Shown here: positions 62 through 178 of the stretch, in pieces | Layout of the letters: each line of letters begins with the position of its first letter | Position numbering within the stretch: the stretch's first letter is position 1 | IMG/VR virus record: IMGVR_UViG_3300021256_000063 | Coordinates: 64,001 to 128,000 of that record | Length of the DNA: 64,000 nt | Direction: 5' to 3' (one strand) | From: a virus | Lineage: Duplodnaviria > Heunggongvirae > Uroviricota > Caudoviricetes | Notes under the pieces: model-generated | Told to the model about the DNA's origin: nothing | Seen by the model: the letters and a program-made list of their open reading frames with translations, nothing else | Database searches by the model: none | Translations under genes and position numbers: made by a program

Positions 62-178
62 AGCGTGGTATCCAAGTGGTCGAAGGAAGAAAAAACGAAT
101 CATGCCCGTGATTTTTACAGCAAATAATCTATGTCTATTCTTATAATGACATCGGGGGTTCGAATCCCTCCCACGCTT
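62..178 (+). ncRNA. tRNA-scaffold RNA with oversized, non-canonical central region
   Basis: Acceptor AGCGTGG/CCACGCT, D-arm TCC-AAGTGGTCGAA-GGA, T-arm GGGGG-TTCGAAT-CCCTC; about 65 nt between D and T arms, no canonical anticodon arm. Confidence 0.65.

Follow-up and report, generated by a model that had tools for sequence, protein, structure and literature searches.

What is the function of an RNA that keeps the acceptor stem, D arm and T arm of a transfer RNA (tRNA) and carries another structured module where the anticodon arm is expected? The question is raised by the element at positions 62-178 of a 64,000-nucleotide (nt) stretch of phage DNA, here called the window, which comprises bases 64001-128000 of the 157-kilobase (kb) IMG/VR phage record IMGVR_UViG_3300021256_000063. 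The answer favoured here, with confidence somewhat above even, is that 62-178 is a non-decoding, tRNA-scaffolded partner RNA of a Ro60-like protein of the Pfam family DUF2828. The gene of that protein lies upstream of the element and is likely the key to its function.

Architecture of the 62-178 element

Element 62-178 has a class-II tRNA body in which a conserved handle, namely a 7-base-pair (bp) hairpin followed by an unpaired UU-ACAGCAA, replaces the anticodon loop. An initial annotation, made from the letters of the window, had described acceptor, D and T arms around an inserted segment; all these parts are found where it had placed them, and the insert between the D and T arms measures 66 nt (88-153). 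The parts of the element are as follows.

62-178 (genome 64062-64178), + strand: 117-nt tRNA-shaped RNA gene (sequence reading and folds)
62-68, + strand: 5' strand of the acceptor stem, AGCGTGG, paired with 171-177 in the single-sequence fold and in the six-variant consensus fold
69-87, + strand: U8-A9 and a class-II-type D arm (71-87) with 3-bp stem TCC/GGA and loop AAGTGGTCGAA (sequence reading)
88-96, + strand: A-rich linker (orthologue alignment)
97-114, + strand: handle hairpin GAAUCAU-GCCC-GUGAUUU, 7 bp (minimum free energy (MFE) fold and covariation)
115-125, + strand: handle motif, single-stranded UU-ACAGCAA-AU, with ACAGCAA proper at 117-123
126-130, + strand: variable linker (substitutions and an 11-nt indel among orthologues)
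131-152, + strand: arm AUGUC-UAUUCUUAUAAU-GACAU at the position of a class-II variable arm (folds)
153-170, + strand: C48 and the T arm GGGGG-UUCGAAU-CCCUC (154-170) (folds)
171-178, + strand: 3' strand of the acceptor stem, CCACGCT (171-177), and discriminator T178 (sequence reading)

The MFE fold contains the acceptor, D and T stems together with two hairpins, at 97-114 and at 131-152, the second with a 12-nt loop. The bases for tertiary contacts are all present (U8, A14, G15, G18G19, A21, C48, T-loop TTC and G53-C61), and CCA is not encoded after the discriminator T178. The element is detected neither by ARAGORN in default mode nor by the Rfam tRNA model RF00005 at E values up to 10.

The heptamer CTTATAA lies at 140-146 in the loop of the ATGTC (131-135)/GACAT (148-152) hairpin, as the initial annotation had reported, and it is indeed the anticodon loop of the tRNA-Ile(UAU) of this phage. 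However, it sits within the 12-nt loop and has no closing stem of its own, and therefore no canonical 5-bp/7-nt anticodon arm is formed; a closed 7-nt anticodon loop with its own stem is present neither in the sequence nor in the MFE fold of 62-178. The run common to the arm loop and the tRNA-Ile(UAU) anticodon arm extends over 10 nt, ATTCTTATAA (as RNA, AUUCUUAUAA), and a run as long with any anticodon arm of the phage arose in 41 of 5000 shuffles of the insert.

The 10-mer TTACAGCAAA occurs exactly at 115-124 and at 638-647, with no further exact copies in the window. In the 157-kb genome it has four forward and no reverse copies, three of the four within 1 kb, while the reversed control pattern is absent from both strands. 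Neither ACAGCAA alone nor the 10-mer with one mismatch is significantly enriched across the whole window. The argument is therefore not based on motif counts, and the signal is the exact, clustered, same-strand copies of the 10-mer.

One handle helix in two topologies

The free-standing elements share one layout: a 5' strand of (U)G-GAC type, 0-3 nt, ACAGCAA, a variable middle, a complementary 3' strand and UG(U). The terminal helix covaries in 22 free-standing copies from this and related phages, with six of nine pairs changed on both sides and a covariation score reached by none of 500 shuffles; pairing amounts to 89%, compared with 31-48% in shifted registers. In the tRNA-shelled copies, the hairpin precedes the ACAGCAA motif. 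Among 21 distinct shelled copies, 98.6% of the cells are paired, both sides are changed in five of the seven pairs, and the score is again matched by 0 of 500 shuffles. ACAGC-A is invariant across the 21 shelled and the 22 free-standing copies. The family of handle RNAs is real, with covariation of the helix in either topology.

The two topologies correspond one to one at an invariant G-C pair, an adjacent A-U pair, a U-G closing pair and the G after the 3' strand; a 'UG' after the 3' strand of the helix is also conserved in both. Because these positions correspond, hairpin 97-114 is the same helix as the terminal stem of the free form, closed by a 3-4-nt loop where the free form has the ends of the RNA. 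With its terminal helix closed in this way, 62-178 is a circular permutation of the neighbouring free-standing elements, RNAs of 60-90 nt, and a tRNA body replaces the former variable middle. Positions 97-123 have the family's characteristic 6-9-bp helix followed, after 0-3 nt, by an unpaired ACAGC(A/G)A.

The initial annotation had proposed a family of modular RNAs combining ACAGCAA with an anticodon loop. Such a family exists, as seen from its covariance model and shelled copies, but the conserved module is the helix with ACAGCAA, and hairpin 97-114 had been overlooked.

Association with a DUF2828 gene

The handle family is confined to the neighbourhood and strand of a DUF2828 gene, in this phage and in most other loci that carry the gene. 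A covariance model built from the free-standing form (R1) gives six hits in the 157-kb genome, all at 60871-64701 around a 502-amino-acid (aa) open reading frame (ORF). This ORF occupies genome 61279-62787 on the + strand, at the centre of an array of RNA genes, outside the window and 1.3 kb upstream of 62-178. It matches Pfam DUF2828 and DUF7788/vWA as well as phrog_850 ('RNA-binding protein'). Element 62-178 lies on the same strand as this DUF2828/vWA gene and within a few kb of it, as is usual for the family.

In 12 IMG/VR loci picked solely because they encode a homologue of the ORF, the gene is immediately preceded by arrays of elements, at protein identities as low as 39%. A further 159 loci carrying a DUF2828 gene comprise 79 phage loci and 80 loci from bacterial or archaeal genomes and metagenome-assembled genomes (MAGs). 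At an E value of 0.01 or better, R1 gives 111 hits in the phage loci and 89 in the genome and MAG loci. All 200 hits are on the strand of the DUF2828 gene, mostly within 600 nt upstream of it, and they are present in roughly two thirds of the 159 loci (count from tables). The genome and MAG loci are mostly from rumen and gut Bacillota MAGs, the best being a Lachnospiraceae MAG with 60% protein identity, and DUF2828 proteins occur by the thousands in gut and rumen metagenomes. Homologues are also encoded on Asgard-binned and giant-virus contigs, namely L129 and L164 (Promethearchaeota MAG contigs) and L017 (a giant-virus MAG). Upstream of the gene in L164, R1 gives a good hit (40.6 bits); in L017 its only hit is weak and on the opposite strand (E 0.03).

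The tRNA-like shell, first noticed in 62-178, is common. With a simple structural finder, the first loci gave 27 shelled copies, and another 67 came from 38 of the 79 further phage loci; all 94 are on the strand of the DUF2828 gene and none on the opposite strand. The handle stands inside a retained 5-bp anticodon stem in most of these copies, and between the D arm and a complete anticodon arm in some. A pattern search of IMG/VR for a D arm with the motif returned two chance matches only, both in coding regions.

The DUF2828 protein is predicted to be Ro60-like because its modelled fold matches Ro60/Rsr/TROVE proteins over the full length. An AlphaFold model of the 502-aa protein from 17 homologues has a predicted local distance difference test score (pLDDT) of 82.5 and a predicted template modelling score (pTM) of 0.84. 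Its top 12 fold matches in the PDB are all Ro60/Rsr/TROVE, including Ro60 of the Thermus phage phiLo, with E values of 4e-7 to 1e-4, template modelling (TM) scores of about 0.5 and about 570 columns. Every other PDB fold match listed (E 1e-3 and weaker) covers the vWA domain only. By sequence, comparison with PDB chains matched nothing useful, and TROVE is not matched in Pfam at E values up to 0.01. The protein is thus Ro60-like by its modelled fold, yet no member of Pfam TROVE.

Anticodon-arm displays

Many handle elements present copies of anticodon arms. Among 51 distinct free-standing elements, 21 have an anticodon-type hairpin of at least 4 bp with a 7-nt loop Y-U-NNN-R-N, whereas 300 shuffles gave a mean of 2.0 and a maximum of 7. 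The anticodon-like hairpins suggested by the initial annotation are, on this count, a true feature of the family. The element at 630-701 reproduces the tRNA-Lys(UUU) anticodon arm exactly, over 17 of 17 nt. The distance from the motif to the anticodon-like loop had been given as 16 nt in 62-178 and 17 nt in the Lys-arm element; both values are right and fall inside the family-wide mode of 13-18 nt. The Ile-type loop of 62-178 fits this habit of display, albeit imperfectly, and the orthologue in L027 has CUUAUUU in its place.

Proposed function

Element 62-178 belongs to a long array in which tRNA genes and odd RNAs follow one another on the same strand, as read over 8 kb upstream. At the head of the array, directly before a tRNA-Gln gene and 3.3 kb upstream, stands a perfect sigma-70 promoter, TTGACA-16-TATAAT (genome 60716-60743; L005 4716-4743). 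Over the 5.5 kb scanned downstream of this promoter, as far as L005 10300, no convincing same-strand terminator was seen. Element 62-178 would be transcribed within this array from the TTGACA-16-TATAAT promoter and would be excised, like the neighbouring tRNAs, by the host RNase P and RNase Z. The handle may then bind the Ro60-like protein in the manner of Y RNAs on Ro60; co-location and the Ro60-like fold point to this binding. The tRNA body and the Ile-type loop would form the effector or bait end. This end could tether the protein to a tRNA-recognising factor or divert that factor, for which a host anticodon nuclease is one candidate and an enzyme that modifies or processes tRNA another.

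Element 62-178 probably represents a Y-type RNA of a new, tRNA-mimicking kind, and not a tRNA used in decoding. A broader proposal joins several steps and is put forward tentatively, as it is doubtful that all of them hold together. According to it, the handle serves as the loading site for an unrecognised second branch of the Ro60-like proteins, DUF2828, and a Y-RNA-like ribonucleoprotein system exists in gut Bacillota, phages and giant viruses. The tRNA bodies or exact anticodon arms (Lys-UUU, Ile-UAU-like, Thr, His and others) on its RNAs would be baits, by which host factors targeting tRNA, such as anticodon nucleases, are captured or misdirected, and the Class I RNAs of Dictyostelium would be the eukaryotic members of the handle class. 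If the handle does bind the Ro60-like protein, this would be an entry point to the role of Ro60-like rings in viruses, to the handling by phages of host factors that read or cut tRNA anticodon loops, and to the reason for the abundance of RNAs with this handle in social amoebae.

Conservation and alternative explanations

Pattern scans of viral and metagenome contigs yielded five further distinct variants of 62-178 and two identical copies. Across the six variants, including that of the window, there are no substitutions in the acceptor stem or in the 11 columns UUACAGCAAAU (115-125). The hairpin stems have one change, from G-U to A-U, with the 3' strand of the hairpin untouched. The T stem likewise has one change from G-U to A-U, the arm stem of 131-152 has one from C-G to U-G with the pair kept, and in the D arm the stem is kept with two substitutions in the loop. 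Variation is found in the hairpin loop, the linkers and the flanking spacer, and indels (of 7 and 11 nt) occur in the linkers only. The 9-nt spacer upstream of 62-178 has 4 substitutions and gaps, and the region downstream is largely rearranged. The middle region is thus not the unconserved one that the initial annotation had associated with pseudogene decay.

In L023, L025, L027 and L028, linker 88-96 is longer by 7 nt, and these provide the 5' strand for a helix resembling an anticodon stem. The fold of the L023 copy is a full class-II cloverleaf, in which a GAUCA/UGAUC helix encloses the handle at the position of the anticodon stem. L029, like the window copy, is without the 5' strand of this helix.

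Several observations weigh against 62-178 being a partner RNA of the DUF2828 protein. The window copy has lost that 5' strand, leaving a 3-bp AGA/UCU closure, and its single-sequence fold energy is no better than that of shuffles (z -0.77). A clean deletion has removed the element, with most of the neighbour downstream of it, from L006 and L007 (protein 85% identical), so that 62-178 is dispensable in some lineages. The orthologues are too similar for pair changes on both sides within 62-178. About one third of the DUF2828 loci have no R1 hit at an E value of 0.01 or better, and the putative link between RNA and protein is one of co-location. Finally, RtcB, an Rnl2-type ligase and a CCA-adding enzyme were not detected in this phage genome, and an RNA-repair context is therefore unsupported in this phage. 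The array is in flux, yet the retained copies look constrained.

It is rather unlikely that 62-178 is a decaying relic of a class-II tRNA or of a shelled element, conserved only through the close kinship of its relatives. Consistent with decay are the missing 5' strand relative to L023, L025, L027 and L028, the clean deletions in L006 and L007, the reduction of the adjacent element to 12 nt at 183-194, and the 7- and 11-nt indels that separate the orthologues. However, the short form is found both in the window copy and in L029, which are of otherwise different lineages. Every stem substitution keeps the pairing, and the acceptor stem, the 3' strand of the hairpin and the 11-nt motif are untouched next to changing flanks. 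All tRNA tertiary-contact bases are intact as well.

The stem and ACAGCAA could instead be a cis-acting signal of the array (a nuclease entry site, punctuation or a stabiliser) and not a protein binding site, with co-location reflecting a shared operon. The copies do all lie in same-strand tRNA arrays without convincing terminators between them. On the other hand, the module follows the DUF2828 gene across proteins of 36-60% identity and across phage, giant-virus and bacterial/MAG contigs, and many DUF2828 loci (for example L009, L012 and L015) show no tRNA genes. A pure processing signal would have no need to be set at the anticodon site of whole tRNA bodies, or to come with anticodon-arm displays at the preferred spacing of 13-18 nt. 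This explanation is unlikely.

It is very unlikely that the handle is a small mobile or recombinogenic cassette inserting into tRNA genes, with the shelled copies as functionless insertion scars. Its presence does differ between close relatives, and the module has more than one position, within the anticodon stem of some shells and, in others, between the D arm and an anticodon arm that is kept. In contrast, the deletion junction shows no target-site duplications or terminal repeats, the orientation is strictly same-strand in 94 of 94 shelled copies with the tRNA elbow always preserved, and no transposase-type gene was noted beside the arrays.

That 62-178 is a working tRNA, with a short intron or insert either taken out or tolerated, is highly improbable and was rejected: ARAGORN in intron mode does give a tRNA-Asp(GUC) with a 39-nt intron at 30/31, and some shelled copies in L006, L007 and L008 do keep a complete 5-bp/7-nt anticodon arm after the module (GUG, GGU and UGU loops), but the call is forced and inconsistent between copies, as it requires an AAGAA/UUCUU stem absent from L023 and L025 and puts the intron at a different non-canonical site in each of four shelled genes, while the insert of 39-66 nt has no group I core and no Rfam intron match, in particular none to RF00028, though the group I intron in the nearby tRNA-Leu(UAA) was found in the same search, and 62-178 has no stem-closed 7-nt anticodon loop.

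The surrounding array

The array holds at least seven free-standing handle elements of 57-95 nt and two further tRNA-shaped genes with the ACAGCAA motif in the middle. Members near 62-178 are as follows.

Window 1-53 (genome 63961-64053, starting 40 nt before the window), + strand: 3' part of a free-standing handle element (R1 31.1 bits, E 9.7e-5)
Window 183-194, + strand: GTGACACTTACA, what remains of a neighbouring handle element deleted here, namely its 5' stem strand and a truncated motif (orthologue comparison)
Window 630-701, + strand: free-standing handle element with the second TTACAGCAAA, the best R1 match of the genome (63.1 bits)

The degenerate start GACACTTACA noted earlier at 185-194 is real, being the 5' remnant of the deleted neighbour. 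In L023, L025, L027 and L028, this neighbour is an intact 122-nt element in which the handle stem closes a tRNA-like body. Between 62-178 and the Lys-arm element, window 243-611 encodes a 122-aa ORF without a Pfam or PHROG match, which is conserved at this position in L006. An integrase-like ORF upstream is a phage integrase by PHROG.

Other tRNA-shaped genes are present in the same region. Window 954-1028 is called tRNA-Met(CAU) by ARAGORN and has no Rfam tRNA match even at E values up to 10. In L006, the gene that holds this place in the array (9559-9629) is called tRNA-Ile(UAU) by ARAGORN. The identity of window 954-1028 is doubtful. Window 1030-1162 is tRNA-shaped, with an 8-bp acceptor stem, D and T arms and an 'anticodon' loop of 11 nt; additional hairpins, about 50 nt in all, precede the T arm. 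Its fold has a z of -2.1, and ARAGORN and the Rfam tRNA model do not detect it. It was considered as a fourth shelled copy and rejected, as it has no ACAGCAA handle. The tRNA-Leu(UAA) gene at genome 63205-63590 (L005 7205-7590) has its anticodon loop interrupted by a group I intron, with an RF00028 match at L005 7247-7510 (39.9 bits, E 1e-6) that is below the gathering score of 50. At genome 63750-63837 (L005 7750-7837), ARAGORN reports an 88-nt 'tRNA-Thr(UGU)' and reads a handle-type hairpin, AAUCAUG-UAAA-GUGAUU, as the anticodon arm. This gene, which has no ACAGCAA and no Rfam tRNA match, is a candidate shelled copy whose motif would have degenerated. For annotation in general, handle genes are missed, or are mis-called as tRNAs with odd anticodons or introns.

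Comparison with known systems

No paper describing these phage handle RNAs was found in the literature; the hits for Class I and Y RNAs are the known work on amoebae and Ro60.

Class-II tRNAs (Ser/Leu/Tyr type) share with 62-178 the 7-bp acceptor stem, the 3-bp D stem, the AAGTGG...GAA loop, the TTCGAAT T arm, G15-C48, a long arm before the T arm and the location in a same-strand tRNA array. In contrast to them, 62-178 has no anticodon arm, with 42 nt of handle and linkers in its stead, and its 12-nt arm loop is far longer than a variable-arm loop.

In the 'tRNA scaffold' of Ponchon and Dardel, from 2007, recombinant RNA was reportedly put in the anticodon arm of a tRNA, with correct processing and nuclease resistance. 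Element 62-178 resembles this design in that a foreign structured module takes the place of the anticodon loop and the acceptor, D and T arms are kept. Unlike the engineered scaffold, it is natural, its form is widespread and it is tied to a specific protein gene; its stability would be a presumed benefit.

Class I RNAs (RF01414) have been reported as unique to Dictyostelia, and their published partner is an RRM protein (Kjellin et al. 2021, PMC7919456). Like them, free-standing handle RNAs have a 5' G, a short terminal stem and a variable middle. The motif directly follows the 5' strand, (C)UUACAGCAA against CCUUACAGCAA, the 3' strand ends in CUG(U), the length is about 60 nt and the GC content 25-40%. 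The free-standing elements thereby carry every published Class I hallmark, including CCUUACAGCAA and the CUGU end (PMC7919456), and 62-178 itself has nine of the 11 letters of the Class I motif. The differences are that 62-178 has a closed hairpin and a tRNA shell with no terminal stem joining its ends, and that handle RNAs are phage genes and not amoebal ones, with no DUSE promoter. RF01414 gives no match on 62-178, and its free-standing neighbours score 23.4 and 24.6 bits against a gathering score of 41.5. A look for a DUF2828 protein of Dictyostelium, in a protein atlas and by homologue searches, brought up only clusters that were viral or unnamed.

Among known systems, 62-178 would by analogy work most like the pair of Ro60 and Y RNA, and YrlA in particular. 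YrlA (RF02553) of bacteria and phages mimics tRNA and adjoins Ro60 genes (PMC4201824), and one YrlA is cut by RNase P and then given CCA (Chen et al. 2014, PMC4201824). RF02553, with a threshold of 69 bits, gives no match on 62-178 at E values up to 10. A sub-threshold match (39.8 bits, E 2.8e-5, model positions 23-87) occurs at L011 4636-4703 and covers parts of two successive shelled copies, the T arm of the first and the D arm of the second. Chen et al. (PMC4201824) warned of dimeric-tRNA artefacts of this kind.

As in the Ro60/Rsr system, the small RNAs are encoded beside the gene of a ring-shaped protein with HEAT repeats and a vWA domain, a form that is predicted here from the full-length Ro60/Rsr fold match. 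Like YrlA, handle RNAs are modular, with one putative protein-binding helix and a tRNA-like domain that has a D arm, a T arm and an acceptor stem; several different RNAs are encoded per locus, and both systems occur in phages. Unlike in the YrlA system, the linked protein belongs to Pfam DUF2828/DUF7788 and not to TROVE, and the handle of 7-bp helix and ACAGCAA shows no resemblance to the Ro-binding helix or to the GNCGAAN0-1G motif of YrlA. The topology is also reversed, since 62-178 ends in the acceptor stem and its handle is loop-closed, whereas YrlA ends in the Ro-binding stem. Many members of the handle family display copies of anticodon arms, a feature not known from Y RNAs. If the handle binds the Ro60-like protein, a second and very abundant lineage of Y-RNA-type particles would stand beside the described one. 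Its RNAs would be built unlike every described Y RNA, with tRNA bodies or exact anticodon arms mounted on a common handle in two circularly permuted topologies.

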